A DNA stretch of 64,000 nt from a virus. The notes beneath the pieces are model-generated. The model saw only the letters and a list, made by a program, of their open reading frames with translations, searched no databases and was not told the DNA's origin. Positions 39,287 through 62,352 of this stretch are shown piece by piece. The stretch is from positions 272,882 to 336,881 of IMG/VR virus record IMGVR_UViG_3300005529_000001, one strand, 5' to 3'. Numbering within the stretch: position 1 is the stretch's first letter; the number at the start of each line of letters is the position of its first letter. The position numbers and the translations under genes were made by a program.

Positions 39287-41197
39287 GTGTTTGATTTCAA
39301 CCAAAGCATCTTCGGGTCCGAAATAACCATCCCACATACTGCAAGGGTGATCTTTGTCTCTGACATGTTCGTAGAAGACTATGTCGGGGGTGCAGAGCTG
39401 ACAAGCCAAGCCTTGCTTGACGCAGCGCCTTTCGAGGTTTTCAAGCTGCATTCCAAAGATGTCAGCATGCAACTGTTGCAAGCGGGTGCTGACAAGTTCT
39501 GGATCTTTGGAAATTTCTCACAGATGAACCCGCAACTGATCCCAACCATCGTTGGGAACCTGAGATATTCCATCCTCGAGTACGACTTCAAGTACTGCCG
39601 CGCTAGGTCACCCGAAAAGCACTTCGCTGAGCATGGCATGCCCTGTGATTGCCACGATCAGATAAATGGGAAGATCATCAGCGCCTTCTACTACGGTAGC
39701 ATGGGACTCTGGTGGATGTCTCAAAAGCAGAAAGAGCGATACCTCCAGCTGTTCCCATTCCTTGCAGAGCGAAGCAACACCGTCCTGTCCAGCGTCTTCG
39801 ACGCCAAGACGCTTGGCATGCTCAAGGCATTGCGGGTCCAGCGTGAAAAGTGTGGAGACAAAAACGGGTGGGTCGTCCTGGGCAGCGAGTCATGGATCAA
39901 GGGCGCTGATGACGCAAAAGCTTGGTGCGAAGCAAACGGGAAAGACTACCAAGTCCTGTGGGGCGAGCCTTACGCCCTTGTTCTCAAGAAGTTGTCGATG
40001 GCCGAGGGCTTCGTCTACCTGCCCAAGGGAGGCGATACCTGTCCCCGGATGGTCATCGAAGCAAAGCTGCTCGGTTGCAAGCTGCAGCTGAATGACAACG
40101 TGATGCACAAGGATGAAGAGTGGTTTGACACTGATGATCTTGACAGCATCAGCGACTACCTTTTCGTCTCTCCCCAGACGTTTTGGAACGGCATCCGTGA
40201 GATGATGAACTACCAGCCCAAGATCTCGGGCTACACCACGACATACAACTGCATCAAGCAAGCGTACCCGTTCGAGCAGTGCATCCAATCGATGCTCGCT
40301 TTCTGTAACGAGGTCTGCGTCATGGACGGTGGTTCAAGCGATGGAACGTACGAGAAACTCAGCGAGATGGCTGAGAAAGAACCTCGTTTGAAGATCAAGA
40401 CCCGCCAGCTTGACTGGTCTACCAAACGTCACCCGGTCTTCGATGGCATACAAAAAGCTGAAGCTCGTAAGATGTGTACGGGTGAGTTCTGTTGGCAGAT
40501 GGACAGCGATGAGGTTGTTCACGAGAGCGACGGAAAGAAGATCAGCGACCTGTGCCGGATGTTGCCCAAGGGTGTTGACGTCATGTGCTTGCCCGTCATT
40601 GAATATTGGGGTGGCTATGACAAGGTTCGCATGGACATCCAACCCTGGAAGTGGCGTTTGAGCCGTAACCTTCCTCACATCACCCACGGCATCCCGGTAG
40701 AACTGAGAGCCACAGACGCCGAAGGCCAGCTCTATGCCAAGCCGGGTACCGACGGTTGTGACATGATTGACCAGGATGGCAACAGATTGCCCGTTCTCAA
40801 CTTCTATACTCCTGACGTCGAACAGGTTCGCCAGGTTGGCATGCTGGGAAATGCAGAAGCCCAACGCCAGTACGAAGCTTGGCTGAACAACGTTGCGCTC
40901 AACCTTCCATGCGTTTACCACTACTCTTGGTTCGATCTGCCCCGGAAGATCCGGCTTTACCGTGACTACTGGCAGAACCACTGGAACGCCCTGTGGGACC
41001 GCGACACTTCAGACACCGCAGCGAACAACATGATGTTTGGCAAGCCCTGGAGCGAAGTTACCGATGAAGACATTGCCCAACGTGCCGCTGAGATGAAAGA
41101 GAAGCTGGGCGGTTGGATCTGGCACAAGCCGTGGGATGGGAAAGCGATGACGCCCCACGTGACCATTCACAAGACACCACCTAGGATCATGCAATGA
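39287..41197 (+). CDS. two-domain glycosyltransferase (N-terminal GT4/GT-B, C-terminal GT2/GT-A)
   Basis: N-term RVIFVSD...GGAE and GGDTCPRMVIEAKLLGC; C-term MDGGSSDGT and DSDE (DxD); start uncertain (GTG 39287 vs TTG 39176 with GGAGGA RBS). Confidence 0.7.
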   Translation: MFDFNQSIFGSEITIPHTARVIFVSDMFVEDYVGGAELTSQALLDAAPFEVFKLHSKDVSMQLLQAGADKFWIFGNFSQMNPQLIPTIVGNLRYSILEYDFKYCRARSPEKHFAEHGMPCDCHDQINGKIISAFYYGSMGLWWMSQKQKERYLQLFPFLAERSNTVLSSVFDAKTLGMLKALRVQREKCGDKNGWVVLGSESWIKGADDAKAWCEANGKDYQVLWGEPYALVLKKLSMAEGFVYLPKGGDTCPRMVIEAKLLGCKLQLNDNVMHKDEEWFDTDDLDSISDYLFVSPQTFWNGIREMMNYQPKISGYTTTYNCIKQAYPFEQCIQSMLAFCNEVCVMDGGSSDGTYEKLSEMAEKEPRLKIKTRQLDWSTKRHPVFDGIQKAEARKMCTGEFCWQMDSDEVVHESDGKKISDLCRMLPKGVDVMCLPVIEYWGGYDKVRMDIQPWKWRLSRNLPHITHGIPVELRATDAEGQLYAKPGTDGCDMIDQDGNRLPVLNFYTPDVEQVRQVGMLGNAEAQRQYEAWLNNVALNLPCVYHYSWFDLPRKIRLYRDYWQNHWNALWDRDTSDTAANNMMFGKPWSEVTDEDIAQRAAEMKEKLGGWIWHKPWDGKAMTPHVTIHKTPPRIMQ

Positions 41198-41538
41198 GAG
41201 AAATGACCCCTGTTGTCGTCGAGTCCCCGTACGCAGGTGACATCGAAAAGAACATGCGCTATCTACGTGCATGCATGCGTGACTGCCTGGTCAACCACCA
41301 GGAAGCTCCTTATGCCAGCCACGCTCTGTACACCCAGCCAGGAGTGCTGCGTGATGAGGTGCCAGAAGAGCGCCAGCACGGCATTGAAGCGGGTTTCGCT
41401 TTCCGACCGCTGATGAAAAAGACCGTCGTCTACACCGACCTTGGGTACAGCTCTGGCATGAAGTATGGCATCAAGCATGCTGAAGAGATCGGTCATCCAA
41501 TCGAGTATCGCACCCTGGGTGGCGAGTGGGCACAATGA
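41194..41538 (+). CDS. DUF4406-like / nucleoside 2-deoxyribosyltransferase-fold protein
   Basis: VVVESPYAGD...N...VVYTDLGYSSGMKYGIKHAEEIGHPIEY. Confidence 0.4.
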   Translation: MREMTPVVVESPYAGDIEKNMRYLRACMRDCLVNHQEAPYASHALYTQPGVLRDEVPEERQHGIEAGFAFRPLMKKTVVYTDLGYSSGMKYGIKHAEEIGHPIEYRTLGGEWAQ

Positions 41539-41747
41539 ACTCATCGCTCTCTTATGAGAAGCTGGTCATGTTCTTGTATCTGCTGATGCGTGACGTAGCA
41601 CCAACAGGCTTTGTCGTCAGCGCTCTCAGGGAAACGGTGAAAGCTGTCGCAGAGACTGAAGTCACGCCCGAGAGCCCAAATACATACTCCAGCAAGGAGT
41701 TACAAGCATATGCTGAGAGGTTGGCAACGGAAATGGTGACGGGATGA
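41526..41747 (+). CDS. hypothetical protein
   Basis: 73 aa ORF in plus-strand operon. Confidence 0.35.
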   Translation: MGTMNSSLSYEKLVMFLYLLMRDVAPTGFVVSALRETVKAVAETEVTPESPNTYSSKELQAYAERLATEMVTG

Positions 41748-41956
41748 CGATCCGTCAACGTGTCATCCATGTGTTGCTCGACTCAAGCACGCCACGAACT
41801 GCATCAGACATCTACCACGTCCTGAACAACAGCGGGTATGTCAAGCTGTCATCCTTGTCCGGCATCTTGAAGAGGATGTATGATGCTGGAGAGCTACGAC
41901 GAGTTGATGAATACGGCCCCCGCGGTGGGTACGGCTACTTGGTGAATCACTCATGA
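41744..41956 (+). CDS. small winged-helix DNA-binding protein
   Basis: 70 aa; TASDIYHVL..SSLSGILKRMYDAGEL helix-turn-helix-like. Confidence 0.4.
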   Translation: MTIRQRVIHVLLDSSTPRTASDIYHVLNNSGYVKLSSLSGILKRMYDAGELRRVDEYGPRGGYGYLVNHS

Positions 41957-42681
41957 GACACGTCAACATCAAACAAAAGCTTGAGGAAATCGGCGTCTCG
42001 CTTGATTCGATCATGATGGGTGACTTCGATTACATCGGAGAATACACTGCCAAACGTGATAGGAAGCCGAACGATGCCAACTACAAGAAGTACGGCGCGT
42101 ATTACCGCTCCAACTATGAACGGGGGATTCTAATCTACTACCTAATCCGCCAGTTCAACCTAAGGTCATTCCTTGAGGTTGGTTTTGGTCGCGGTTATGG
42201 GACGTTTTGTGCTGCACGAGCTTTCCATGACGCAGGAATCGAGGGAAAAGTCCTAACCATCGACCCCGCTCTTGACGAGAAATACCTGACTGCACTCCAA
42301 CAGGTCTTTCCCAAAGAGTGGTTCAAGTGCATCCAGTTTGCCAAGGGCACGTCACAAGCGATACTTCCTCAGGTCAAAGATCACTATGATCTTGTCTATG
42401 TTGATGGCGACCATTCGTATGACGGCACCAAACATGACTGGGAGAAGACCAAAGACTTGTGGGACAAGTTCTTGCTGTTTGACGATTACCACCTCCCCAC
42501 GAAAGACGACCCAGGCATCCAGTGCTCACGACTGATCGATGAGATCGACGATCCATCAAAGGAACTCATCATCATGGACCGCCGGATGTTTTTCGATGAC
42601 CGCCGCTTCACCGATGATCAGATCGATTACGGTCAGGTGTTATTGAGCAAACCAGGAACGGGCCGTGATGATTGGGAATGA
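41953..42681 (+). CDS. class I SAM-dependent methyltransferase (O-methyltransferase/Methyltransf_24-like)
   Basis: Motif I LEVGFGRGYGT; LVYVDGDHSYD. Confidence 0.65.
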   Translation: MRHVNIKQKLEEIGVSLDSIMMGDFDYIGEYTAKRDRKPNDANYKKYGAYYRSNYERGILIYYLIRQFNLRSFLEVGFGRGYGTFCAARAFHDAGIEGKVLTIDPALDEKYLTALQQVFPKEWFKCIQFAKGTSQAILPQVKDHYDLVYVDGDHSYDGTKHDWEKTKDLWDKFLLFDDYHLPTKDDPGIQCSRLIDEIDDPSKELIIMDRRMFFDDRRFTDDQIDYGQVLLSKPGTGRDDWE

Positions 42682-43033
42682 TAAATGCGTAGTCCCACCT
42701 GATGGGTGGTATTGCACTCGCAAAGCGGGTCATGACGGTCCCTGCGCTGCGTTGCCTGTCGTTGACGTTGAGAAACCTAATGATGTTGCGTTCTCGTATT
42801 CGGTCACCAAAAAGCAAGTCGCGCAAGCCAAGGTGTGGGTGGAGAAACATGACCTTGAGAAGCACGCAAAGGCAATGAAACCCTACGGCGAGGGTGGCAA
42901 GCTGATCCGTTACAGCGGAGCTATCGGCGGGGCATATACGTGGGAGTTCACTCCAACCAGCTTGGGAATCGCCGTAAACCTTCGATGTTCATGCGGAGAG
43001 AAGTTTGATGTCACGGACTATGATCTCTGGTGA
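42665..43033 (+). CDS. hypothetical Cys-rich protein
   Basis: 122 aa. Confidence 0.35.
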   Translation: MMIGNDKCVVPPDGWYCTRKAGHDGPCAALPVVDVEKPNDVAFSYSVTKKQVAQAKVWVEKHDLEKHAKAMKPYGEGGKLIRYSGAIGGAYTWEFTPTSLGIAVNLRCSCGEKFDVTDYDLW

Positions 43034-43760
43034 GAATCGCTTTGTCTTTGTTGCGCCGATGTACAATGCATCGGCAACACTAGACCAGTGTCTCGCTAGC
43101 TTGGTGGGCCAGTCTTACAAGAACTGGAAGATCATTCTTATTGATGACGTGTCTGACCAACACGAGGTGATGAAAGAAGCTGAGATCATCCGTCGGTGGC
43201 GACCCATGTGTTATAGCGGTGGCATGCAGATCGTGGATGTCTGGAACGATGAGAAGAAATGGGAGGTTGCCAACGTCCTACATGGCATCAGCATGTGTGA
43301 ACCCAATGACATCGTCTGTCGCATGGACGCCGATGACTGGTTGACGGAGCTTGATGCGCTGTGCATGCTTAACGCAGCATACACCCAGATGAAGTGTGAC
43401 TGCTTATGGACTGCACACAGGTGGGGTTTTAGCGACAAGAACATCAGCGGGCCCATGTCAGACGGCACCGATCCCTACAAACACCCTTGGGTATCAAGCC
43501 ACCTGAAAACGTTCCGAAAGAGCCTCATCGATGGTGTCAATGACCAGAACTTTAGGGGTGAGGACGGGAGTTACATCCGACGTGCTGGTGACCAGGCAAT
43601 CTACTTGCCGGTCTTGCAACATGCCCAAAAGAGACTGTTTGTCCCCAGGGTCATGTACCACTACACGATAGACGATGTTCCAGAAACGTACCAGACTGAT
43701 GATGCACGCTTCCAGCGTGATGAAGCATTGTTTCTTCGAGCGAGGGGCTATGTACAGTGA
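43005..43760 (+). CDS. GT2-family glycosyltransferase
   Basis: FVFVAPMYNASATLDQCLASLVGQSYKNWKIILIDDVSD. Confidence 0.7.
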   Translation: MMSRTMISGENRFVFVAPMYNASATLDQCLASLVGQSYKNWKIILIDDVSDQHEVMKEAEIIRRWRPMCYSGGMQIVDVWNDEKKWEVANVLHGISMCEPNDIVCRMDADDWLTELDALCMLNAAYTQMKCDCLWTAHRWGFSDKNISGPMSDGTDPYKHPWVSSHLKTFRKSLIDGVNDQNFRGEDGSYIRRAGDQAIYLPVLQHAQKRLFVPRVMYHYTIDDVPETYQTDDARFQRDEALFLRARGYVQ

Positions 43761-44334
43761 TGATTTCTTCAAGGCTTATGCGGATTACCTGAAAGAGCCC
43801 ATTGTCCGTAAGAACCACGACCGCATCTTCCGTGATTGGTTCGAAGAGACGTGCCCATGTCAGCTCAAGGTCGTCGACATTGGTTGTGGTTTAGGTGAGT
43901 TCCACCAACATGGTTTCAAGTTGCAGTATGTAGGACTTGATCTCAACCCACGTGTCAACGCTGATACTTTGAAGGTCGACTACACTAAGCGTGAATGGGT
44001 GAAGGACCTGCCCTTCCTACCCAATGCATTCGTCAGCTTGTTCTCGTTGGAGCCCATGCTCGATGTAAGCGAACGGTATTCCTACTACGACTGGCTTTTT
44101 GATGCCATTCCAACGCTTCAATTCGGTCTGTCAGCCGGTTTCTACTACGCCAGCAAGGCCGATCACTTCATGGTCGGTGAGGCAGGCGATATCACCAGCT
44201 ACCAGACTATTGAGAAGCTCGGCGAGCACGGCAAGGGCTCATACCACGAGGAATGGACGGTCATGCACACGCCATCTGTCATGTTCGGACAAGATGTGGT
44301 CGAGATCTGGAAAAAATTCACGAGGAAAGTATGA
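43750..44334 (+). CDS. SAM-dependent methyltransferase
   Basis: Motif I VVDIGCGLGEF; start re-set to ATG 43750. Confidence 0.6.
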   Translation: MYSDDFFKAYADYLKEPIVRKNHDRIFRDWFEETCPCQLKVVDIGCGLGEFHQHGFKLQYVGLDLNPRVNADTLKVDYTKREWVKDLPFLPNAFVSLFSLEPMLDVSERYSYYDWLFDAIPTLQFGLSAGFYYASKADHFMVGEAGDITSYQTIEKLGEHGKGSYHEEWTVMHTPSVMFGQDVVEIWKKFTRKV

Positions 44335-44567
44335 GAAGGTTCTACCTACAACGCAACCAGGACGCCTCGGGCGTCTCGGGCCTGGGTAAGGTCGCTGAGG
44401 GTTGCCAGTTTGACACGGGTTGGTGTGCGTTGATCTGGCTGACGGGTAAGTCAGCGATGAGTTACTATCCAGACATCGAAACAATCATCATGATCCACGG
44501 TCATAATGGGATGACACAGGTCACTTGGGTCGATGACGAAAGCTCGAACGTTGTCATTGAACGTTGA
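44331..44567 (+). CDS. hypothetical protein
   Basis: ATGA-coupled 78 aa ORF. Confidence 0.3.
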   Translation: MRRFYLQRNQDASGVSGLGKVAEGCQFDTGWCALIWLTGKSAMSYYPDIETIIMIHGHNGMTQVTWVDDESSNVVIER

Positions 44568-44797
44568 ATGGTCCAGTGAAAATGAATCTAAAAGTGATCT
44601 TCGAAGCAGCAAACGGTGAACGTGTAGAACGTGAGCTCAAGACGGCGTGGTCTACCGAAGTGATGCGTGACCTAAAGTCGTACAAGGGGATCACGGTGGG
44701 GGAGGACATGAAACAGATCCTCGCAAATACGATCGCAGAATGTATCAACCCTGAGTTCGTCATGAGCGTGCTGACTGAGTTTGAAAACAAGACGTAG
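44564..44797 (+). CDS. hypothetical protein
   Basis: 77 aa. Confidence 0.3.
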   Translation: MNGPVKMNLKVIFEAANGERVERELKTAWSTEVMRDLKSYKGITVGEDMKQILANTIAECINPEFVMSVLTEFENKT

Positions 44798-44835
44798 TGA
44801 ACCCATCCACTTTAGAGTGGTATGGTAAGGGAAAC

Positions 44836-45060
44836 ATGCTACGAATCGTTGTGACGGGACACCCAGCTGAGGGCAAGACGACGATCGCGATGATCATCGA
44901 GAAAGCTCTCAAAGACCACGGTATCTTGGTCAAGAACCTAGACCCCGACGTCGTCTACGGGTCAAGCAATCCCGACCTCCAGTCCAACCGAATCGAAACA
45001 CTTCGAGTTCGTTCTAGGGCTGAAAACGTTCACATCGAGACCGACCAGGTTCACAAATGA
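44836..45060 (+). CDS. small P-loop NTPase-like protein
   Basis: VVTGHPAEGKTT Walker A; start at ATG 44836 with AAGGGA RBS. Confidence 0.4.
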   Translation: MLRIVVTGHPAEGKTTIAMIIEKALKDHGILVKNLDPDVVYGSSNPDLQSNRIETLRVRSRAENVHIETDQVHK

Positions 45061-46013
45061 GAATGTATATCAACCGTTTGCCTGTCAGCGGGCCCTGGGG
45101 AGGTGGCAACCTTTTTGTCAGCGCGTTTCACAAGCGTGCTCCTGCCCTGGGCGAGAACAGGGACATTGAGCTGGTCATGGACGAAACTGGGCGCACGCCC
45201 ATTGACGTCATCCTGCTCGCGGGCTTGGATAACGACGGCACGGGCATCAGCGTTGACCAAGCGGTGATGTACCAGATGTACGTGAAACCCGACTGCAAAA
45301 TCGTCCTCCGCGTCAACGAAAATGACGCTCGGAAGGGCACCACGCACATGGATGACATGTTGGTCAGGGTGTCAGAGCACCTGGATGGGACAGTCTTTGT
45401 CTCTCATTACTTGCAAGACTACTTCAACGAACGTGGGTGGAAGTGTCCAAACCAGGCTGTCATCTACAACGGCGTTGCTCACGATGTCTTTTCGCCACAA
45501 CCCAAGTTTGACGACAACAAGCTCCACATCGTGGCACATCACTGGAGCGATAACCGGATGAAGGGTGCCGACATCTACGAGCAGCTCGACGTTTTCGTGG
45601 GAGAGCGGCCTGACAAGTTTGCTTTCACCTACATCGGTCGGCACCAGTGTGACTTCAAGAACACCACCGTGGTGAAGCCGCTTGCGGGCAAGGCTCTTGG
45701 CCAGGAGTTGGGAAAGCATGACGTGTACGTCAGCGCTAGCCGGTTTGATCCGGGCCCGAATCACATCCTCGAGGCGTTGTCATGTGGTTTGCCCACCTGG
45801 GTCCATCGTGACGGTGGTGGATGCGTTGAGTTCGCTGGTGATGACCATGCCTATGAAAACTGGGATCGGTTGCAGGAGATCTTGCGAGCTCCAAACCCAG
45901 TGGCGCCCAACTCAAACGCGGTGAAGCTTCGAACGTGGCAGGAGTGCGTCCAGGAGTATATTGACTACCTGGAGACCACATGGAAGGCCACATCAGGTTC
46001 GCAGAGCTCCTAG
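45057..46013 (+). CDS. GT-B (GT1/GT4-like) glycosyltransferase
   Basis: C-terminal DPGPNHILEALSCGLP resembling E-x7-E donor-binding motif. Confidence 0.55.
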   Translation: MRMYINRLPVSGPWGGGNLFVSAFHKRAPALGENRDIELVMDETGRTPIDVILLAGLDNDGTGISVDQAVMYQMYVKPDCKIVLRVNENDARKGTTHMDDMLVRVSEHLDGTVFVSHYLQDYFNERGWKCPNQAVIYNGVAHDVFSPQPKFDDNKLHIVAHHWSDNRMKGADIYEQLDVFVGERPDKFAFTYIGRHQCDFKNTTVVKPLAGKALGQELGKHDVYVSASRFDPGPNHILEALSCGLPTWVHRDGGGCVEFAGDDHAYENWDRLQEILRAPNPVAPNSNAVKLRTWQECVQEYIDYLETTWKATSGSQSS

Positions 46014-46378
46014 AGCTCCACATCACCAACCAGATCAACAAGAAGTTCGTTAATGCAACCGCTGATAACAAGACGCTGCACGAGATGCGAGACGTGGTCA
46101 AGGACCAGGTCTTCACCGTGTTTGGCAAGTCATCACACAAAGTGACTGAAGCGGGTCTCAACTGGCTTGTCAACCAGATCTTCAAGAACTTGCAACTCAG
46201 CAGCAAAGACGCTGATGGCAAGACAACCAAGACAGCCGTCTATGAGCTCGTCATCTTCAACGAGTACAACCTGGCTGATCTGCCGTACAGTGACATCCAA
46301 CTCTTGCGAAACCTCTTCAGCCAAGCTCCGTACGGGCAGCAACTTGAAGAAGAATACAAGAGCCGGAGCGCAGCATGA
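45980..46378 (+). CDS. hypothetical protein (possible tandem paralog of next ORF)
   Basis: 132 aa; shares SKD..GK-containing segment with 46375..46767. Confidence 0.3.
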   Translation: MEGHIRFAELLELHITNQINKKFVNATADNKTLHEMRDVVKDQVFTVFGKSSHKVTEAGLNWLVNQIFKNLQLSSKDADGKTTKTAVYELVIFNEYNLADLPYSDIQLLRNLFSQAPYGQQLEEEYKSRSAA

Positions 46379-46767
46379 GCGAGTCAAAGATCAAGCCCGG
46401 CCAGTTTCACCAGGTGTTTTCCCAGCTCTTGGGCCAAAAGCTGAAACGCTTTGAGTCCAAAGATGGCGCGAAGGTTGACCTCAACCTTGTCACTTGTGTT
46501 GAGATCTACACAGAGATTTTCGAGACCTGTGTTGAAGTCATCACCACATCAGAGATCGAGCTGACCAATGAGGGGATGAACTACCTCGCACAACAGTACT
46601 ATGACGGCGTCCTGATCAACGGTCACCAAGAGCTCGATCCTGAGATCTTTAGCCAACGGGCAAAGGTCGAGAACATGGAGACAGAAGAGCTGACATTGTT
46701 GGCCGTCTTGCTGTCTGCTACTGACTTTGCTCTGCCCGTCCTTGAGGAGATCAGGAAGCGACAATGA
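46375..46767 (+). CDS. hypothetical protein
   Basis: 130 aa. Confidence 0.3.
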   Translation: MSESKIKPGQFHQVFSQLLGQKLKRFESKDGAKVDLNLVTCVEIYTEIFETCVEVITTSEIELTNEGMNYLAQQYYDGVLINGHQELDPEIFSQRAKVENMETEELTLLAVLLSATDFALPVLEEIRKRQ

Positions 46768-47066
46768 ACGATCACTTGCCCGGCATCCATTACGCGTGTC
46801 CTGTGTCGAGCTCGACAGACGTCGATCGGGTCTATAACTCCATCGATGACATGCTCCTGACTGGACATGCTAACAAGGTGGACGAACTGCTGACACAGGT
46901 TGACGTCACCAAGTGTTCGATCACCATCATGCTGTCTTACCTGACCATCACTCTTGTGTGGAAAGACGCACTAAAGAACCGTGCAGCTCTCTATGATCGG
47001 ATCTATGACCGCATCGGATTGGTTGACCTTACACGACGGGAGAGCTTGCTACAGGGACTCAAGTGA
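46764..47066 (+). CDS. hypothetical protein
   Basis: 100 aa. Confidence 0.3.
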   Translation: MNDHLPGIHYACPVSSSTDVDRVYNSIDDMLLTGHANKVDELLTQVDVTKCSITIMLSYLTITLVWKDALKNRAALYDRIYDRIGLVDLTRRESLLQGLK

Positions 47067-50449: not shown

Positions 50450-50462
50450 TACAGTTCACAGG

Positions 50463-51503
50463 ATGTCTGGGACCCTTATCTTTGGCGGCACTGGTTCGCT
50501 CGGTCGCAAGCTGATTGAACGTCTCCTTCCCAAGGGAGACGTTGCTGTCTACTCACGTGATGAAGCGAAACACTGGACTATTCGAAATGAACTTTCGGGG
50601 TTCATTGAGAAAAGCTTGCCCTGGAAGCTTCAGTTCTTTGTGGGTGACGTCAGGGACAAAACTCGAGTCGAAGACGTCATTCGTCAGTACAACCCTGATA
50701 CGATCATCATTGCTGCGGCGCTGAAACAAGTAGACACTTGTGAGCTCAGCCCCAACGAAAGCGTGTTGACAAACCTGATTGGGACTCAGAACGTCATCGA
50801 CGCAGTCAACAAGTCACGGTTCTCCCCTGGTGTCTCAGTCATGTTCGTCAGCACCGACAAAGCTTGCGCACCTGTCAACGTCTATGGAATGTGCAAAGCA
50901 ATCTCAGAACGCGTCGTGACAAGCCAGGCTCGTACGGGGCTATCAAACGTCAGGTACCTAGCGGTCCGTTATGGCAACGTTCTCGAGTCTAGAGGTAGCA
51001 TCATACCGTTGTTCAAACACCAGTGTGAGAAAGGCGAGTTCTTGACGGTCACCGATCCCGAGATGACGCGGTACGTGATGACGCTAGATGACAGCGTGGA
51101 TCTTATCCAAAAAGCAATAGAGTTTGGAATCTCAGGTGAGACGTGGATCCCGTGTCTTCCAGCAATGAAGATCGGTGACCTTGCTGACATTTTTTCTCAA
51201 CGATATAACAAACCCGTCAAGGTCATTGGTTTACGGCCGGGAGAGAAGAAACACGAAGACCTGGTCAACGAGTCGGAGTCAGTTAGGACGCGTAAAATCA
51301 ATCCACCCGTGGGATTTAACTACGTCATCGACCCCGCGTTTCGTTCCGGCAATGGTCAACGGTTCACTTACTCTAGCTCGGACCTGGTCATGAATCGTGA
51401 AGATCTAGAGGTGTACCTCAACAAGCTTGGCATCTTTGACAAGCCGTTAGACCAGTTCAAGGGCCTTGCCATCGAAGAGATCGTCACCAACCGAAAGGAA
51501 TGA
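50463..51503 (+). CDS. UDP-GlcNAc 4,6-dehydratase-like protein (PseB/FlaA1/PglF/CapD family)
   Basis: GGTGSLGRKL Rossmann motif, YSRDEAK, YxxxK region. Confidence 0.7.
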   Translation: MSGTLIFGGTGSLGRKLIERLLPKGDVAVYSRDEAKHWTIRNELSGFIEKSLPWKLQFFVGDVRDKTRVEDVIRQYNPDTIIIAAALKQVDTCELSPNESVLTNLIGTQNVIDAVNKSRFSPGVSVMFVSTDKACAPVNVYGMCKAISERVVTSQARTGLSNVRYLAVRYGNVLESRGSIIPLFKHQCEKGEFLTVTDPEMTRYVMTLDDSVDLIQKAIEFGISGETWIPCLPAMKIGDLADIFSQRYNKPVKVIGLRPGEKKHEDLVNESESVRTRKINPPVGFNYVIDPAFRSGNGQRFTYSSSDLVMNREDLEVYLNKLGIFDKPLDQFKGLAIEEIVTNRKE

Positions 51504-52650
51504 CATGAAGACGTACCCGCTGTTCAAAGTCCACGTTCCCAAAGAGGAAGCTTTGGCCCAGTTGGGTCAGGTCTTCGACTCGGGTTTCATCAACGAAGGT
51601 ACGCAGGTCACCGCCCTGACCAGCCAGCTGTCTGAGTACCTAGAAAGCAATCACCTCATCCTGGTGAACAGCTGCACTAGCGCCTTGTTCATGGCGCTAA
51701 AACTCGCTGGGGTCGGTCCTGGAGACGAGGTCATCAGCACGGCGATGACGTGTGTGGCAACCAACGCTGCCATCGCAATGACAGGCGCTAAGATTGTCTG
51801 GGCTGACGTAGATCCTGAGAGCGGGATGCTTGATCCTTACAGCATCATGGAGAAGATCACTCCTCACACCAAAGCAGTCATGGCGGTGGCTTGGGCGGGA
51901 ACCCCACCTCACATGTTCATGTTGAAAAACACGTGCAAGGCATTTCATGTCAAGCTGATCTTGGATGCTGCACACGCGTTCGGCGCCTATTACAAAAATG
52001 CTCCCGTTCACGAGTGGGCTGACTACACTTGTTACTCATTCCAGGCTATCAAACACTTCACTACGGGGGACGGCGGCGCTCTTATCTGTACCGACAAGGC
52101 TGATTACCAGCGATCTAAGTCGATGAAATGGTTCGGGCTTGACCGTGACAAAACCAAGGATGCTGCGGGCAACTGGAAAGGCCAGCAGTGGGACACCGAC
52201 ATCGAGGAGATCGGCTACAAGTTTAACATGAACAACGTTTGTGCAGCCATCGGTCTGTCGCAGATGAAGCACGTTGACATGATCGTGGACGGCCACGTCA
52301 GGAACGGGGGCCGATATGACATGCTGTTCCTCGACTACGAGCCCGTTAGGCCAATCACGCGGCCAGACGGTAGCATCTCGGCACACTGGGTCTACACCAT
52401 GAAGGTGAACCCCGACAAGTGCAAGCTGTCACGTGACGATCTGTTGAAAGCTCTCAACGCTGAGAAGATCATGGCGGGAGTGGTACACGTTCCGAACGAC
52501 GATTACACCTGCTTTCAGGACATCAAAGACCATAACCTGAAGGGTCTCAAGCAGTTTGCACCCCACCAGTTCTCATTACCGTGTGGGTGGTGGCTTGAAG
52601 AGGAAGACATCCGTCACATCGCCAAGCGTGTCAAGGAACTCACACAATGA
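51504..52650 (+). CDS. DegT/DnrJ/EryC1-family PLP-dependent sugar aminotransferase (PseC/PglE-like)
   Basis: SFQAIKHFTTGDGGALI with conserved Lys; start re-set to ATG 51504. Confidence 0.7.
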
Positions 52651-53171
52651 GAGTTGATGTCCCGGACCAATATTACTTGCGTCCCGTTGAAAACGATGAT
52701 CACCCATTTCTTGTTGACTTGCACAATGATGAGCTGGTCCTCAGGAACTTGACACATCCAGAAGCCATCACTATGGAACAACACATGAAGTGGTGGGAGA
52801 AAACCAAAGCCGATCGGAAACAGCTTAGGTTGATCTTTGTGACAGACGGTCACCGGACGGGTGTTGCCAAGTTCTATGATTATGATGCCATCAACCGGAC
52901 GATTGTCCTGGGAGGCGACATCCACAAAGCACACAGGGGTCATGGGCTCGCTAAGTACATGTGGACGTTGATGCTTGAACGTTGTTTCGAGAGCTTCCAC
53001 GTTCACCGCGTTGGCCTGACGACCGCCGAATACAACGTGATCGGTCAAAGCGTCTACAAAAACTTGGGCTTCATGGAAGAGGGCCGGATCAAAGAATCGT
53101 TGTACCGTGATGGAAAGTTCTATGATCAGATCTGCATGTACCTAACAGAACACGATTGGGCGCTTCAGTGA
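52647..53171 (+). CDS. GNAT-family N-acetyltransferase (PseH-like candidate)
   Basis: GNAT motif A RGHGLAKYMW; follows dehydratase + aminotransferase. Confidence 0.6.
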   Translation: MRVDVPDQYYLRPVENDDHPFLVDLHNDELVLRNLTHPEAITMEQHMKWWEKTKADRKQLRLIFVTDGHRTGVAKFYDYDAINRTIVLGGDIHKAHRGHGLAKYMWTLMLERCFESFHVHRVGLTTAEYNVIGQSVYKNLGFMEEGRIKESLYRDGKFYDQICMYLTEHDWALQ

Positions 53172-53902
53172 ACGAACTGCCTCGTATCTTTGTGGGTACC
53201 ATGTACACCCAAGAGGGTGAGTTTGAGGGCTGTCTCAAACAGATCCGTGCGCAACAGGACGTCGTTGTTGCGCATGTCATCATTGCTAACATGCGTGAGA
53301 AAGAGGCACACAACGCTCTGTGGCACGCCTGGCGTCACCAGGGCTCAAGCCACGATCTCTTTGTTAAGGTCGATGCTGACACCATCCTAGCTTCACCACA
53401 CACGCTAAGGCTGATCTGGGAACAGTTCAATAACAACCCACGAGTCACGGGTCTCCAGGCACCGTTACATGATTACATGACTGATGGCCTGATCAACGGG
53501 CTCAATGCATTCTCAACCAAGGTCGTCTTCAATGATACCCAAGACGAACTGTACTGCGACAGGCAAGTGGACACGAACCATGATGTCGTCCTACGAGAGA
53601 AAGACCTACCATCAACGTTGATCCCGGCAGGTTTTCACTGTTGGAACTCGACTGACTCACAAGCTTTTCATTATGGCCTCCATCGGATGTTGAAGGGGCA
53701 ACGAACAACCATCGACAAAGTCAGAATGGCTTGGAACCGTGACCATGACAGACCAAGAGCTTGGGCTCTGATCGGCGCAAAGATGGCGGACCAGTTTACC
53801 ATCAATCGTCAGTTCAACTACAACGATCCGACGTTCAAAACAGCATTCGCTGAGGCAAATACACGTTATGATGAGCTCACCCAGAATCTTGCAGTTGGTT
53901 GA
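53156..53902 (+). CDS. hypothetical protein, possible GT-A-like glycosyltransferase
   Basis: VKVDADT acidic motif. Confidence 0.3.
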   Translation: MGASVNELPRIFVGTMYTQEGEFEGCLKQIRAQQDVVVAHVIIANMREKEAHNALWHAWRHQGSSHDLFVKVDADTILASPHTLRLIWEQFNNNPRVTGLQAPLHDYMTDGLINGLNAFSTKVVFNDTQDELYCDRQVDTNHDVVLREKDLPSTLIPAGFHCWNSTDSQAFHYGLHRMLKGQRTTIDKVRMAWNRDHDRPRAWALIGAKMADQFTINRQFNYNDPTFKTAFAEANTRYDELTQNLAVG

Positions 53903-54809
53903 CACCCTCGAGTACGCCAAGACCAACTGCTTCCAACACCAGTTGCTAAAGAGCCTACGAGGCATTGCACAAACAGAAACGTGTGCCTTGCCAGCGCTGG
54001 AACGTGCCCTGGACATGGATGACCGTCCTGTCATCGTTTGCCTGAAACAACGAACCCTGGCACAAAATCTGGACGTGCTCAAAGATCATTTAGGAGACAC
54101 GCCCATTGTCATATACGATCAGGACCCGTGGCAAGCCTACATGGATGATCCTGGTTATGTTGGCAAGGGAGTCTATGAACGCGCTGTCGAGCAACTAAAT
54201 GTCAAAGCGATCTGCGTTACCACCCAATGGTGGGCTGATTTCTTAGCGCACCGCGGTTTACCTGGCATTTTCGTCAACATGTGGATGTTACCCGAGTATT
54301 GCACCGAAACGCCAACATACGAAGACAGATCAATATCTGTAGGTTTCGTCGGCAGCCTGCATCCGCACCGTCAAAAGCTGTTTGACCAGCTCGAAGACAT
54401 GGGCATCATCGTCAACGTCCAAGGGGGAGGTCTGTCTTACCAGAGCTATTTGAACGAGCTATCAAAGATCCGTGTCTTCATCCATAGCGAAGATTGCCCA
54501 ATCATGTGTGAAAAGCAAGAACTCAACCTGAAAGACGCCCTGTGGATCAAAGACATTGAAGCCGCGGCTCGGGGTTGTTTCACCATTCGTAATGCGGGCG
54601 CGGGTTTCTTATCGTATTATGATGGGTGTTTGACGTCGTTTCTCTACGAAAACGTCGAAGACATCCCAAACATCCTGAGTGACATCCAGAAAATGGATCC
54701 CACGTCAAGGCAGTTGCTAATCAACAGCGCCGTCAGGTACATCCGTGAGTCAAACAAGTGGGAAGAAACGGCACGCACGTTGGTTACTTTGGCAACAGAG
54801 GGAACATGA
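53868..54809 (+). CDS. hypothetical GT-B-fold-like protein
   Basis: 313 aa; size/position compatible with PseG-type UDP-sugar hydrolase. Confidence 0.3.
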   Translation: MMSSPRILQLVDTLEYAKTNCFQHQLLKSLRGIAQTETCALPALERALDMDDRPVIVCLKQRTLAQNLDVLKDHLGDTPIVIYDQDPWQAYMDDPGYVGKGVYERAVEQLNVKAICVTTQWWADFLAHRGLPGIFVNMWMLPEYCTETPTYEDRSISVGFVGSLHPHRQKLFDQLEDMGIIVNVQGGGLSYQSYLNELSKIRVFIHSEDCPIMCEKQELNLKDALWIKDIEAAARGCFTIRNAGAGFLSYYDGCLTSFLYENVEDIPNILSDIQKMDPTSRQLLINSAVRYIRESNKWEETARTLVTLATEGT

Positions 54810-56083
54810 AAATAGGGTTCATGGGTCTGGGCAAGCTCGGGTTACCCGTTGCCCTGGCGGTGGAAGCCGCGGGCCACGAGGTGATGGGTTATGATCCTGG
54901 CGCTCAAGTTGTTGACATCATATCGACAAAGAAGCTACCGTATGTCGAAGAGAACGCCCAACCGTTGCTCGACAACACCAAGCTCCGGCTAGTAGGTCCC
55001 GGTGACCTGGTCGAACAGTGCGACTTGATCTTCGTAGCTGTCCAGACGCCCCACCACCCACGTTATGAGGGAGTCAGTCGCCTTCCGACCAAGCGAGTCG
55101 ATTTTGATTACACCTGGCTAAAGCAGTCGATCACCCAGCTCGCTGATGCTGCGGCCCAGAAAGCGAAGACGACCCGTGTTGTTGTCATCTCAACGGTGCT
55201 TCCCGGGACGATCGAACGTGAGATCTTCCCAATCATGCATGCGTACGGAAACTTCATCAAGCTGTGTTACAACCCGTTTTTCATCGCGATGGGAACCACG
55301 ATCCGTGACTTCACCAACCCAGAATTTGTTCTCTTTGGGGTAGACGATCACGAAACAGCAACCCTTGCTGAAACGTTTTACAAGACCATCCACGCTCGTC
55401 CCTTCTACAAGACGGGAATCAAGGAAGCTGAGCTGATCAAGGTTGCTTACAACACATTCATCAGCACAAAGATCGGGTTTGTCAACACGTTGATGGAGAT
55501 CTGTCACAAGACGGGTGTCAATGTCGATGCGGTCACAGACGGCTTGAAGCTAGCTAACGAACGTCTGATCAGCACCCGCTACATGACGGCTGGCATGGGC
55601 GATGGTGGCGGGTGTCACCCTCGCGATAACATCGCGTTGTCTTGGCTCGCTCGTAAGCTTGAATTGGGCTTTGATTTCTTTGAAGCGATCATGCTTTCCA
55701 GAGAACGACAGACGGATTGGTTTGCTGATGTGCTTGAAGAGCAGATCGAACAATGCCGGAAGATGGGCTGGAACCCGCCCGTTGTCATCCTCGGTCTATC
55801 TTTCAAACCGGAGACAAACCTGGTCACGGGCAGCCCGGCAATCTTGCTTGCAAACGTCATAGCGGAGCGTGGCATCACTCCCATGTTCTATGATCCCATT
55901 GTCAACCCCAATGACCGGACCCGGACGCTTCCCCCACCACCTGCTCTGTTTTTTGTGGGTACCAAGCACGCTGAGTTTGCAAACATAAAGTTTAGCGTAG
56001 GATCGATCGTTATCGACCCACACCGGTACATCCCCGATCAGCAAGGCGTCACTGTCATCAGGTTGGGTGATGGGACCAAGTGA
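54806..56083 (+). CDS. UDP-sugar 6-dehydrogenase family protein
   Basis: KIGFMGLGKLGLPVA NAD-binding motif; catalytic Cys GGGCHPRDN. Confidence 0.7.
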   Translation: MKIGFMGLGKLGLPVALAVEAAGHEVMGYDPGAQVVDIISTKKLPYVEENAQPLLDNTKLRLVGPGDLVEQCDLIFVAVQTPHHPRYEGVSRLPTKRVDFDYTWLKQSITQLADAAAQKAKTTRVVVISTVLPGTIEREIFPIMHAYGNFIKLCYNPFFIAMGTTIRDFTNPEFVLFGVDDHETATLAETFYKTIHARPFYKTGIKEAELIKVAYNTFISTKIGFVNTLMEICHKTGVNVDAVTDGLKLANERLISTRYMTAGMGDGGGCHPRDNIALSWLARKLELGFDFFEAIMLSRERQTDWFADVLEEQIEQCRKMGWNPPVVILGLSFKPETNLVTGSPAILLANVIAERGITPMFYDPIVNPNDRTRTLPPPPALFFVGTKHAEFANIKFSVGSIVIDPHRYIPDQQGVTVIRLGDGTK

Positions 56084-56774
56084 GTTTTTGGTCTCAGTCC
56101 TTGTCCCAACTCGAAACAGGGTCAAGTTGTTAGAGAAATCGTTGCGTTCGTTAAAAGACAACGCTCGGCTTGATTTCAAGCAGAAAATTGAGATCATCAT
56201 AAAGCTCGATGAAGATGATGTAGCGACCCAAAACTGGGTGATACAAAACAACGCCGAGCTGTGGACAACGCTGTTACCTGGGCCGCGCGGGCGCGGTTAC
56301 GCTGACCTCCACGTCTACTACAATGACATGTGTCGTTTGGCTCGGGGCGAGTTCTTGTTCCTCTGGAACGATGATGCTGAGATGTTGACGCCGGGCTGGG
56401 ACCTGGAGATCAACCGACAACTTGATGGCAAGCCGTGTTACTTGCAATCTGAAGTCAGCGACATTCGTGGACGTGACGCTTTCTTGTTTCCTATCGTTCA
56501 CAGGTCATGGTACGACAGCTGCGGTCACTTCTCGATGTCACCGCACAATGACACGTACGTGTTTAACGCATTCATCAAGTACCCGCAGCTGTTCCGTAAA
56601 ACGGCGATCGTGGTGCGACACGCCGCGTTACAAAATTTGCATGACATCACCAGCTTAGAAGCACGAGGGTGGTGGCCGACAACCAAGAGAGGTTGGGGCA
56701 GCCCGGAAGTCCAGGACTCGCTAGCGTCTGACATCAAACGCTTGGGAGAGCTGGTGAAACAGTATAAGCTGTAA
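56067..56774 (+). CDS. GT2-family glycosyltransferase
   Basis: VLVPTRNR and NDDAEM (DxD). Confidence 0.6.
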   Translation: MMGPSEFLVSVLVPTRNRVKLLEKSLRSLKDNARLDFKQKIEIIIKLDEDDVATQNWVIQNNAELWTTLLPGPRGRGYADLHVYYNDMCRLARGEFLFLWNDDAEMLTPGWDLEINRQLDGKPCYLQSEVSDIRGRDAFLFPIVHRSWYDSCGHFSMSPHNDTYVFNAFIKYPQLFRKTAIVVRHAALQNLHDITSLEARGWWPTTKRGWGSPEVQDSLASDIKRLGELVKQYKL

Positions 56775-56790
56775 AGATTACATTCTACGC

Positions 56791-57771
56791 ATGAAGAGCA
56801 TCGCCGTCGTGGGCCAGGGTTTCGTTGGTGGATCGCTAACGACAGTTTTTGCAGAGCGTGGCTTTGACGTGTATGCTTATGACAAAGCGGGCAAGATCGC
56901 TACGGGTGCTAAGGTTCCTCGCTTCCATGGCCACGGAACTGGGCCTGATGGAATCGAAGCTACATCTGTCAAGGGCTTGGTCTTTGCGATGGATGAATTG
57001 GGTAAGGCTTTCAGCAACGTCTACTTCGTGTGCTTGCCGACCCCCATGTTCGAGGACGGCGAGGCTGACCTGTCGATCGTTGAGGGCGTCCTCGCTGAGC
57101 TCGCCGAAGCGCACAAGGTCCTGGAGCGTTGGGGGATCGCGGTCGTCAAATCGACGGTCCCGCCGGGCTCAGTCGAGCGATGGAACAAGGCTTTCAACTC
57201 ACAGGGTCTCTACATCGTCTTCAATCCAGAATTCCTGACAGAGGCCAACGCCCTGGACGACATGCGCAACCAGGATCGGATCATCCTGGGCGGGCCCCGC
57301 CCCTACATCAACATTGTCAAGCTGCTGTTTCAGACGGCGTTCAAGGGCGTCCCCGTCATCAAGACCTCATCGACGACGGCGGAGATGGTGAAGTACACCA
57401 TCAACTGCTTCCTGGCGACCAAGGTCGCCTTCGCCAACGAGATCGCGCAGATCACTGAAGCGCTGGACGCTGACGGTCTTAACGTCGACTATGACAAAGT
57501 GGTTGAGTACGCCAAGCTCGACAAGAGGTTGGGCAACAGCCATTGGGCAGTACCAGGGCCCGTGCCCACGCACGATGGGCGATACGTGCGCGGTTTCGGA
57601 GGGCACTGTTTCCCCAAAGACTTGAATGCGCTTGTTTTCGTTGCGAAACAACTCGGGGTTGACCCGAAAGTCCTCACCAGTGTCTGGGCCAAGAACCTTG
57701 AGGTCCGCGGGCCCGAAGACCGCGACTGGGAACACATGCAAGGCCGAGCTGTCAGCAAGAAAAAGAAGTGA
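56791..57771 (+). CDS. UDP-glucose/GDP-mannose dehydrogenase family protein (second copy, shorter)
   Basis: VVGQGFVGG and catalytic Cys GGHCFPKD. Confidence 0.65.
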   Translation: MKSIAVVGQGFVGGSLTTVFAERGFDVYAYDKAGKIATGAKVPRFHGHGTGPDGIEATSVKGLVFAMDELGKAFSNVYFVCLPTPMFEDGEADLSIVEGVLAELAEAHKVLERWGIAVVKSTVPPGSVERWNKAFNSQGLYIVFNPEFLTEANALDDMRNQDRIILGGPRPYINIVKLLFQTAFKGVPVIKTSSTTAEMVKYTINCFLATKVAFANEIAQITEALDADGLNVDYDKVVEYAKLDKRLGNSHWAVPGPVPTHDGRYVRGFGGHCFPKDLNALVFVAKQLGVDPKVLTSVWAKNLEVRGPEDRDWEHMQGRAVSKKKK

Positions 57772-61986: not shown

Positions 61987-61994
61987 GACAGGCC

Positions 61995-62351: not shown

Positions 62352-62352
62352 C

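Follow-up and report, generated by a model that had tools for sequence, protein, structure and literature searches.

A conserved glycosylation operon of uncultured T4-related jumbo phages that may assemble a glycan in the cytoplasm, possibly on virion proteins

The operon and its hallmark enzyme

We begin by considering a stretch of 64,000 nucleotides (nt) of viral DNA (IMG/VR record IMGVR_UViG_3300005529_000001, positions 272,882 to 336,881; hereafter the window), in which positions 39287-57771 hold a set of genes for glycan synthesis. The 26 genes form a co-directional plus-strand block, as the original prediction for this DNA had it in both coordinates and strand, and many neighbours share a few bases at their junction. 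Intergenic gaps within the block all stay below 25 bp except beside a nuclease insertion (at 47999-48073), and the operon is bounded by a 228-bp gap upstream and a 55-bp gap downstream. Annotation of the open reading frames (ORFs) with Pfam and NCBIfam was run and upholds the overall gene inventory that had been predicted. We propose, with confidence that is evenly balanced, that this is a core glycosylation operon of uncultured T4-related jumbo phages, whose enzymes would assemble a glycan in the cytoplasm, most likely on virion proteins. The features on which this proposal leans first are the following.

39249-39277 (+): promoter-like motif TGAACA-N17-TACAAT, whose 3' end lies 10 nt ahead of the first gene's GTG start codon
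39287-41197 (+): bifunctional glycosyltransferase (GT) of 636 amino acids (aa), in which an N-terminal GT-B (GT4-like) domain with a Cys/His knuckle comes first, a GT-A (GT2) domain follows in the centre and the C-terminal region is helical
46375-46767 (+): conserved acidic protein of 130 aa, found in 37 loci and directly after the 636-aa gene in L024 and L048

(L049 and L059 denote the DNA past the left and right ends of the window, respectively; the other L numbers denote the loci of relatives.)

The 636-aa enzyme was predicted to be a double-domain GT4/GT2 protein. This assignment stands, given the Pfam GT2 match at residues 318-422 (27.6 bits against a cut-off of 23.3), the invariant D406-x-D408 and an AlphaFold2 model with a predicted local distance difference test (pLDDT) score of 89.4. 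In the model, the N-terminal domain matches PDB 6kih and BshA, and the best structural match of the GT-A domain is to SunS/ThuS, which are cytoplasmic peptide-glycosylating enzymes.

The 130-aa protein stays beside the 636-aa enzyme even in relatives where the rest of the operon is replaced, and for this reason it is a candidate partner, adaptor or acceptor. Its family has one invariant Cys and no conserved Ser/Thr-rich loop, and looks like a helical adaptor. A membrane anchor was considered for this protein and dropped: the hydrophobic stretch at its C-terminus proves to be conserved and amphipathic, and it ends in a basic tail.

Glycosyltransferases, sugar nucleotides and methylation

The other transferases of the operon are assigned by family match and by fold. 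GT-B enzymes are characterised by two Rossmann-like domains with a C-terminal nucleotide-sugar-binding motif (E-x7-E-like), and the proteins starting at 47063, 45057 and 48582 are assigned to them by profile matches. GT-A enzymes have only one Rossmann-like domain, which binds the nucleotide, and a metal motif of the D-x-D type; residues 318-422 of the 636-aa enzyme and the protein starting at 43005 are assigned to them by Pfam.

43005-43760 (+): GT2 (GT-A) glycosyltransferase, 251 aa; Pfam 1.7e-13, 51 bits; 44 loci
45057-46013 (+): GT-B glycosyltransferase, 318 aa; full-length paralogue of the GT4 enzyme at 47063 (hhalign 98%, E 7e-14); 37 loci
47063-47998 (+): GT4 (GT-B) glycosyltransferase, 311 aa; Pfam Glycos_transf_1 (GT1/GT4) 4e-14, above cut-off; 39 loci
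48582-49637 (+): GT-B glycosyltransferase, 351 aa; profile search against PDB gives BshA at 2.4e-4, hhalign to the GT4 family 6e-6; 35 loci
49634-50449 (+): GT-A fold glycosyltransferase, 271 aa; invariant E-S-D motif; assigned by fold; family specific to the phage clade
53156-53902 (+): conserved 248-aa protein, possibly GT-A; invariant D-x-D
53868-54809 (+): conserved 313-aa protein, possibly a CgeB-like GT-B; Glyco_trans_1_2 E 0.013; PF13524 in about 20 of 115 homologues
56067-56774 (+): borderline GT2-like protein, 235 aa; 21.9 bits, below the 23.3 cut-off; 2 loci; variable among relatives

Where at least eight glycosyltransferases had been predicted, we count eight GT domains in seven proteins, seven of the domains with solid sequence or fold support and one (56067) borderline; the protein at 53868 gives a hint only. 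By hhalign, neither the 271-aa family nor the protein at 56067 matches the GT2 family. The 248-aa and 313-aa proteins likewise have no significant match in profile searches of the PDB or in hhalign against the operon's own GT families.

We turn our attention to the supply of activated sugars, for which the operon carries five genes, followed below by its two methyltransferase genes.

50463-51503 (+): UDP-GlcNAc 4,6-dehydratase of the PseB/FnlA type, 346 aa, soluble; Polysacc_synt_2 1.5e-78; PseB model 258 bits against a cut-off of 408
51466-52650 (+): DegT-type sugar 4-aminotransferase, 394 aa; Pfam 2.9e-81; PseC model 242 bits against a cut-off of 423
52647-53171 (+): GNAT N-acetyltransferase, PseH-like, 174 aa; Acetyltransf_3 3.5e-13; PseH model 51 bits against a cut-off of 93
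54758-56083 (+): nucleoside diphosphate (NDP)-sugar 6-dehydrogenase, 441 aa; TIGR03026 219 bits against a cut-off of 190; three Pfam domains
56791-57771 (+): short NDP-sugar dehydrogenase paralogue, 326 aa; TIGR03026 200 bits (above cut-off), covering 2-294 of the 413 profile positions; no UDP-binding domain at the C-terminus
41953-42681 (+): methyltransferase dependent on S-adenosylmethionine (SAM), Methyltransf_24 / O-methyltransferase-like, 242 aa; Pfam 1.1e-12; 30 loci, about 69% identity
43750-44334 (+): probable class-I methyltransferase, 194 aa; SAM motif I VVDIGCGLGEF; Methyltransf_23 E 0.021; contig-specific

The dehydratase/aminotransferase/acetyltransferase triad was predicted correctly and is supported by Pfam in all three members. 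Their best-matching families are PseB, PseC and PseH, with all scores far below the equivalog cut-offs. Synthesis of pseudaminic acid or another nonulosonic acid was considered and rejected, PseG, PseI and PseF being missing: the NeuB and CTP_transf_3 families of the PseG/PseI/PseF steps are not found in any ORF of the operon or its flanks. The pathway therefore should stop at UDP-2,4-diacetamido-2,4,6-trideoxyhexose, which would be used directly as a donor.

Two UDP-sugar 6-dehydrogenases had been predicted, and both proteins indeed score above the TIGR03026 cut-off; the shorter one falls short of the description in that it has no UDP-binding domain. Family membership points directly to the full-length enzyme as the supplier of a uronic acid. 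The short form is itself conserved, with homologues of 304-328 aa in L058, L019, L043 and L038, even where the full-length enzyme is missing, and it may have a role as a subunit or act on a different substrate. As for the two predicted methyltransferases, that at 41953 is solid by its Methyltransf_24 match, and that at 43750 has a motif and a weak match only; by their families these enzymes can methylate sugars. The predicted capacity for a methylated glycan with amino sugars and uronic acids thus holds, the gene set being present.

Conservation and module swapping

The block had been called an island, in the sense of an accessory or acquired set of genes. Its base composition is not atypical, and its gene content is repeated in the same order in 47 independent contigs, far beyond chance. 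On these grounds we read it as an operon that belongs to the conserved, syntenic core of a very large lineage of uncultured phages and not as an accessory island. The 47 relatives of the 636-aa protein in IMG/VR have 45-79% identity to it; 11 of their contigs exceed 180 kb and seven are 200-340 kb long. Searching these loci with all window proteins (tblastn) gives one gene order, shared by most of them, that starts with the 636-aa gene and ends with the 313-aa gene. The order is 636 aa, (DUF7768), methyltransferase, GT2, (Acb5-like, 78 aa), GT-B of 318 aa, 132 aa and 130 aa, continuing with GT4 of 311 aa, GT-B of 351 aa, GT-A of 271 aa, dehydratase, aminotransferase, GNAT, 248 aa and 313 aa. 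The divergent genes upstream of the operon are common to the relatives' loci as well, and two further ENA contigs (134 and 301 kb) show the same gene pattern with annotated gene calls.

Beyond these loci, the 636-aa enzyme has 2215 full-length relatives in a large (metagenomic) protein database, and the clade-restricted families of the 271-aa and 313-aa proteins have 261 and 115 members. Among 50,697 deposited phage records, tblastn with the 636-aa protein gives no match, and ten concatenated operon proteins give isolated aminotransferase and dehydratase matches only, so that the module is in no record. Among 185,579 species genomes the 636-aa enzyme is found in 7 copies, all in contigs of metagenome-assembled genomes (MAGs), one of 305 kb.

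Relatives differ in what follows the first genes. In L024, a 200-kb contig, the 636-aa and 130-aa genes are kept and are followed by a GDP-mannose 4,6-dehydratase, a second short-chain dehydrogenase/reductase (SDR), a DegT protein, other GT2s and methyltransferases, and L057 adds a formyltransferase and an RmlD-like reductase. This pattern of replacement suggests a conserved initiating pair with an exchangeable elaboration module, as in serotype variation.

Phage context

The window corresponds to bases 190,729-254,728, reversed, of the 369,506-bp ENA contig ERZ27279688:k141_1055159, located by an exact match of the 636-aa protein. A minus-strand block at 399-35587 encodes a T4-type portal (Portal_T4, 1e-75), the large terminase subunit, an SbcC-like nuclease subunit, a PIN-PhoH protein and a helicase. 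Just past the left window end, on the same contig, are a Peptidase_S77 prohead protease and a 640-aa major capsid protein of the Gp23 type, and precomputed gene calls place Sigma70_r4, Hc1 histone-like and Clp protease proteins on the contig too. The phage origin assumed in the prediction is thus confirmed by portal, terminase, protease and capsid protein together on one 369.5-kb contig. The closest relatives of the portal are distant, namely Microcystis phage Mel-JY01 (47%), a 484-kb uncultured phage, Flavobacterium phage immuto and Rhodothermus phage RM378. Megablast of the operon and the structural block against the 50,697 deposited phage records (INPHARED) gives no match. Since no deposited phage shares the DNA, and given the T4-type genes and the large contig, we assign the window to an uncultured T4-related jumbo phage.

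By gene content this lineage resembles the moraphages, jumbo phages from aquatic metagenomes whose core gene set includes four orthogroups with a glycosyltransferase annotation (Perez-Hernandez et al., Arch Virol 2025, PMC12619734). The 369.5-kb contig has Portal_T4, Peptidase_S77, Gp23, PhoH, CLP_protease, Sigma70_r4 and Hc1, and its GT genes are conserved across relatives. Shared with the moraphages are a genome above 200 kb, T4-like structural genes, PhoH, a Clp protease, a sigma-factor-like gene, an Hc1 protein, richness in GTs and Rhodothermus phage RM378 as a distant relative. There are differences, however: the published maximum is 307 kb, the contig is absent from that paper's list, and a sigma-70-type promoter motif with 52% G+C (GC) here fits poorly with the proposed Flavobacteriia hosts. 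That paper lists GTs and three generic possibilities; the operon, the bifunctional enzyme, the sugar pathway and the module swapping are undescribed there.

Regulation

The promoter-like motif before the operon has a single match in the window (0.4 expected from shuffles) and about 20 relatives keep it ahead of their 636-aa gene, at a distance of about 40 nt; in some of them it is found inside the operon as well. A second copy (TGAACA-N17-TAnnAT) lies 8 nt before a gene cluster past the right end of the window (L059:10815-14227, window-equivalent about 64136-67548), which consists of a PDDEXK_1 nuclease gene and, after it, two GT4 genes (439 and 385 aa). The same trio is found downstream in the relative L058. 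The size originally given for the gene set was therefore too small, with two more GT4 genes about 0.2-3.5 kb past the window end behind the same promoter-like motif. Generic scans of the operon are at chance level, both for sigma-70 promoters (13 against 11.3 expected) and for terminators (24 against 16.9 ± 4.1).

The structural genes carry another element. The hexamer TACTTA is depleted in the window (11 copies against about 31 expected), and 4 of the 11 copies are intergenic (6164, 32502, 35951 and 39204), three of these being 25-35 nt 5' of gene starts. The genes that it precedes, at a distance of 25-35 nt, are the capsid gene and other head genes nearby (in L049, with copies upstream of 11945, 14116 and 16158), the Hc1 gene and the terminase operon, and it is a candidate phage-specific, perhaps late, promoter element. 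In 15 of 37 relatives an intergenic TACTTA upstream of the operon points away from it. With the TGAACA-N17 motif at both GT clusters and TACTTA at the structural genes, the glycosylation genes therefore seem to form a regulon of their own, possibly not a late one.

Two further sequence features are noted for the record. GATC occurs 559 times in the whole window, where about 249 copies are expected from base composition, and is densest at 39059-39286; the 228-bp region upstream of the operon has six GATC/AGATCT sites, and AGATCTA recurs there in 17 of 37 relatives. In addition, GATCAGATG frequently overlaps start codons.

What the operon may build

The question then is "what do these enzymes act on?" The gene content combines virus-encoded soluble GTs, sugar-nucleotide synthesis and methyltransferases, without membrane or lipid-carrier components. 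A hydropathy scan of the 26 operon proteins finds no polytopic membrane protein and three marginal single stretches only, and among Pfam and NCBIfam matches in the operon there is no lipid-carrier priming transferase, Wzx/Wzy, ABC transporter, polymerase or ligase family.

Going by family membership, the phage makes its own activated sugars, a UDP-2,4-diacetamido-2,4,6-trideoxyhexose by way of the triad and a uronic acid by way of the NDP-sugar dehydrogenase. It also encodes one or two methyltransferases and no fewer than seven soluble glycosyltransferases, and all of these genes share one tightly packed transcription unit with its conserved promoter-like element. Because the enzymes are cytoplasmic and genes for priming, flipping, polymerisation and export are absent from the operon, assembly would be stepwise in the cytoplasm and directly on a soluble acceptor. 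The 636-aa GT-B+GT-A enzyme and its 130-aa companion would most likely start the glycan on the acceptor, which the other transferases, the methyltransferases and the sugar-modifying enzymes would then extend and decorate. Exchange of these extending and decorating parts between relatives would give serotype-like variants of the glycan. As candidate acceptors we consider the fibres and the 640-aa major capsid protein with its insertion, and the result would be a glycan coat, comparable to what is found on mycobacteriophage capsids and tails and on chlorovirus and mimivirus capsids and fibrils. The capsid protein (L049:14116-16038, about 3.6-5.5 kb past the left window end) has an insertion of about 270 residues (119-392) with many Gly, Ser, Thr and Asn and few charged residues, and this insertion is a candidate for both a surface domain and a glycan acceptor.

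That the acceptor is a virion protein we infer with a confidence just short of evenly balanced. The preference rests on the scale and chemistry of the machinery, its core status across phages of diverse GC, the serotype-like module exchange, the SunS-like GT-A domain, the capsid insertion, and the fact that no DNA-base-activating enzymes were found in the DNA inspected. It has precedent, in that phage GTs and methyltransferases glycosylate virions in other phages (PMC12619734).

Several points speak against a virion acceptor. About 55 kb separate the capsid gene from the operon, whose motif TGAACA-N17-TAnnAT differs from the TACTTA of the structural genes, so the operon may not be late. The composition of the capsid insertion is only mildly unusual, and the acceptor stands as a candidate by inference. 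The fold matches are generic in nature, and that to SunS has a low TM-score (0.26-0.46), with teichoic-acid and polysaccharide GTs scoring nearly equal. Finally, the DNA inspected comes to about 84 kb of 369 kb, and a DNA base hydroxylase is possible in the other 285 kb or so.

In its widest form the proposal is one of host-independent protein glycosylation in very abundant, globally distributed jumbo phages. A GT-B+GT-A initiator with a 130-aa partner and swapped sugar modules would give serotype-like coats of methylated heteropolysaccharide on capsids or fibres, the most elaborate such machinery known in phages and a counterpart, among viruses of bacteria, to the glycans of mimivirus fibrils and chlorovirus capsids. 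We put this forward tentatively, leaning somewhat against all of it holding at once.

Alternative explanations

Remodelling of the host envelope, which the original prediction had offered beside virion decoration, survives best among the alternatives, and we regard it as unlikely. Here the soluble GTs would act at the cytoplasmic face of the membrane on lipid-linked intermediates of the host (lipopolysaccharide core, O-unit, capsule or protein-glycan precursors), the flippases and ligases of the host would be used, and the altered surface would block superinfection or the sticking of progeny to debris. Swapping of sugar modules in a serotype-like manner is typical of surface-antigen loci, a promoter type other than late would suit an early function, many structural neighbours are compatible with it, and serotype-modifying phage GTs are well known (PMC12619734). 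The known serotype converters, however, are temperate phages that use 1-3 genes, while the core here is of about 14 genes in phages of a lytic type. We disfavour the explanation since none of the 26 genes encodes a membrane-anchored protein, a lipid-carrier priming (phosphoglycosyl) transferase, a flippase, polymerase or exporter (Wzx/Wzy, ABC transporter) or a GtrA/GtrB-type component. It is also hard to square a fixed hallmark enzyme, kept across phages of hosts with very different GC, with acceptors as diverse as these would be.

Hypermodification of DNA was absent from the original prediction, and we judge it improbable, though worth attention. A complex glycan would be placed on a hydroxylated or hydroxymethylated pyrimidine, in the manner of T4 glucosyl-hmC, RB69/DLP3 poly-arabinosyl-5hoC or the 5mYOX/ThyS-linked GT clusters, and would block restriction and other nucleases. 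The phage is T4-related, an early or middle promoter type would fit, and DNA-glycosylation clusters pair several GT-B enzymes with donor synthesis, their models matching 6kih and BshA too (PMC13326640). GATC is 2.2-fold over-represented, and so there is no sign of restriction-site avoidance. Such a pathway needs an activated base, however, and in the operon, the scanned window ORFs, 10 kb on either side (20 kb beyond the window in all) and the relatives' loci we find no ThyA-like synthase of 5-hydroxymethylcytosine (5hmC) or 5-hydroxycytosine (5hoC), no 5mYOX/TET with methyltransferase, no dCTPase and no deoxynucleoside monophosphate (dNMP) kinase; the sole kinase is an 87-aa contig-specific fragment. 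These pathways are usually clustered (preprint 10.1101/2023.12.21.572611), and the 26 core virus orthologous groups (VOGs) of the moraphages include no thymidylate-synthase homologue, nor any 5mYOX, dCTPase or kinase of this kind (PMC12619734). Known DNA glycans, moreover, have at most three sugars, and the locus has at least eight GT domains together with methylation, N-acetylation and oxidation.

A soluble or secreted glycoconjugate seems a little less probable still. The glycan would be free or sit on a small carrier such as the 130-aa or 132-aa protein and would act as a matrix inside the cell, as a decoy or as a signal. What speaks for it is that the 130-aa protein remains beside the 636-aa enzyme when all else is replaced, and that SunS-type enzymes glycosylate a small peptide encoded alongside. 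The single invariant Cys, the want of a conserved Ser/Thr-rich loop and the adaptor-like look of the 130-aa family do not fit a carrier, and there is neither a known phage precedent nor an export function.

An artefact, in which a bacterial polysaccharide locus is misjoined to phage DNA or a bacterial contig is mislabelled as viral, is very improbable. It could draw on the bacterial-type enzyme folds and the few copies in bins labelled as bacteria, yet the same junctions (upstream minus-strand genes, promoter, 636-aa gene) and order recur in at least 47 independent assemblies from various samples and assemblers, phage genes lie on both flanks of one contig of uniform base composition, and the "bacterial" records are MAG contigs; with this synteny conserved across assemblies, mis-assembly is rejected.

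Small genes in the operon and neighbouring genes

The operon contains, besides the enzymes above, a number of small genes, insertions and apparent passengers.

41194-41538 (+): DUF7768 protein, 114 aa; Pfam 2e-27; 11 loci; no relative in the PDB
41526-41956 (+): two small ORFs, 73 and 70 aa; poorly conserved
42665-43033 (+): conserved 122-aa protein; 11 loci; no family match
44331-44567 (+): 78-aa protein of the Acb5 family; precomputed Pfam PF26761; 13 loci, 59-81% identity
44564-44797 (+): 77-aa Gp23-like ORF; Pfam Gp23 33.3 bits against a cut-off of 24.4; contig-specific
44797-45060 (+): 87-aa P-loop kinase fragment (APS-kinase/KTI12-like); contig-specific
45980-46378 (+): conserved 132-aa protein; 16 loci
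46764-47066 (+): 100-aa ORF; contig-specific
47999-48601 (+): PD-(D/E)XK nuclease (MTES_1575, Vsr/DUF559-like); 27.4 bits, below the 38.2 cut-off; here and in L038 only

Acb5 proteins are phage nucleases that destroy 3'3'-cyclic GMP-AMP (3'3'-cGAMP), the signal of the CBASS defence (bioRxiv 10.1101/2025.07.12.664507). By its family, a match that comes from precomputed Pfam annotation only, we take the 78-aa gene to be a passenger anti-defence gene inside the operon. The nuclease had been predicted as a DUF559 endonuclease; the match is instead to the related MTES_1575 model, at a score below cut-off. With a counterpart in one other locus only, the gene is probably a selfish insertion. It and the ORFs at 43750 and 46764, the Gp23-like ORF and the kinase fragment look like insertions, all of them contig-specific apart from the nuclease. 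The Gp23-like ORF aligns over 50 residues with the capsid protein that the phage itself encodes (residues 397-446) and is only 30% identical there, so that the idea of a recent copy of the capsid gene is rejected.

Directly after the operon, at 57827-60393 (+), is a pair for NAD+ salvage, a fusion of nicotinamide mononucleotide (NMN) adenylyltransferase with Nudix and a nicotinamide phosphoribosyltransferase (NAMPT). NAD+ is the cofactor of the operon's dehydrogenases and dehydratase. A dual-specificity phosphatase-like gene follows the pair at 60413-60847 (+). Small translation-related genes at 61713-63335 (+), for a PTH2-type peptidyl-tRNA hydrolase, a tRNA-binding domain protein and an HD-domain protein, lie just 5' of two odd tRNA genes in tandem at 63758-63830 and 63837-63910 (+) (Rfam 52 and 47 bits). 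ARAGORN assigns no amino acid to either; both have a four-base "ttca" anticodon in an enlarged loop and could be of a suppressor or frameshift type.

On the structural side, the portal (716 aa, 3628-5778, -) aligns to T4-type portals only at residues of about 60-470 and has a C-terminal extension of about 250 residues without a match. According to precomputed Pfam annotation, the prohead protease and capsid genes are separated, within the head-morphogenesis module, by genes for a GIY-YIG nuclease (253 aa) and a peptide deformylase (164 aa) at 399-1654 (-). Large ORFs of 952, 658 and 826 aa at 13914-29827 (-) have no Pfam or PHROG match, and those of 1388 and 340 aa in the same run have no Pfam match; ORFs of 286, 414, 238 and 162 aa lie between them. 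This run possibly encodes tail, baseplate or fibre proteins of the lineage. A 95-aa protein with Sigma70_r4 only (31406-31693, +) and a 76-aa Hc1 histone-H1-like protein (32252-32482, -) are of kinds highlighted for the moraphages (PMC12619734).

Comparison with known systems

The giant viruses of eukaryotes, with the fibril glycan clusters of Mimivirus and the chlorovirus capsid protein Vp54, have their own nucleotide-sugar synthesis, soluble GT-A and GT-B enzymes that include multidomain ones, and methyltransferases. Their gene sets vary between related viruses and give lineage-specific glycans. The original likening of this locus to giant-virus machinery is apt: the 4,6-dehydratase/aminotransferase/N-acetyltransferase set, the many soluble GTs, the methyltransferases and the variation of gene sets with lineage are shared. 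In contrast, we have here a tailed phage of a bacterium, a single co-directional operon and a bacterial-type promoter, and no orthologue of the hallmark GT-B+GT-A fusion was detected in giant viruses.

Among phages, GTs and methyltransferases of mycobacteriophages modify virion proteins in the cytoplasm without lipid carriers, and shielding has been proposed as the function (Freeman et al. 2023, as cited in PMC12619734). The phage-encoded GTs and methyltransferases are shared, and the cytoplasmic location and the independence of lipid carriers would be as well. Those cassettes are small, with about 2-4 genes, draw on host nucleotide sugars and lie beside structural genes, while the present operon has 26 genes with sugar-nucleotide synthesis, is about 55 kb from the capsid gene and probably has another promoter class.

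The DNA-glycosylation clusters of phages (the T4 alpha- and beta-GT, the arabinosyl-5hoC systems of RB69 and DLP3, and those linked to 5mYOX or ThyS) share with the operon their occurrence in T4-like phages, several GT-Bs that match the same PDB structures, and donor synthesis within the cluster (PMC13326640). They differ in that the operon's transferases and tailoring enzymes far outnumber what any DNA glycan described so far would call for, and in that no ThyA-like protein, 5mYOX, dCTPase or full-length nucleotide kinase is seen in the roughly 84 kb inspected. Bacterial loci for pseudaminic acid, bacillosamine and O-antigen share PseB/PseC/PseH as the best family matches and the serotype-like exchange of sugar genes, whereas the scores here are sub-equivalog, PseG, PseI and PseF are missing, and there is no lipid-carrier or export machinery.

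To our knowledge, glycosylation in phages is known only as virion cassettes of 2-4 genes or as DNA-glycosylation clusters, and self-sufficient virus-encoded glycosylation is a hallmark of giant eukaryotic viruses. The present locus is a system of 14-26 genes with its own nucleotide-sugar synthesis, a clade-defining bifunctional enzyme that resembles an initiator, exchangeable sugar modules and a promoter type of its own. If the glycan is on virions, the system would bear on phage-host and phage-grazer recognition in water, on the evolution of phage-surface "serotypes" and on convergence between jumbo phages and giant viruses, and would offer a compact set of soluble enzymes with which to engineer glycans in the cytoplasm. 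Should DNA be the acceptor instead, the pathway would far exceed in complexity every DNA glycan pathway known, and it would do without known base-activating enzymes. By analogy of function, the autonomous glycosylation of giant viruses and the small virion cassettes of mycobacteriophages appear closest to the operon. Virus-encoded autonomous glycosylation is itself already known; the new elements are the bifunctional hallmark enzyme with its partner, the swapping of modules and the dedicated promoter.

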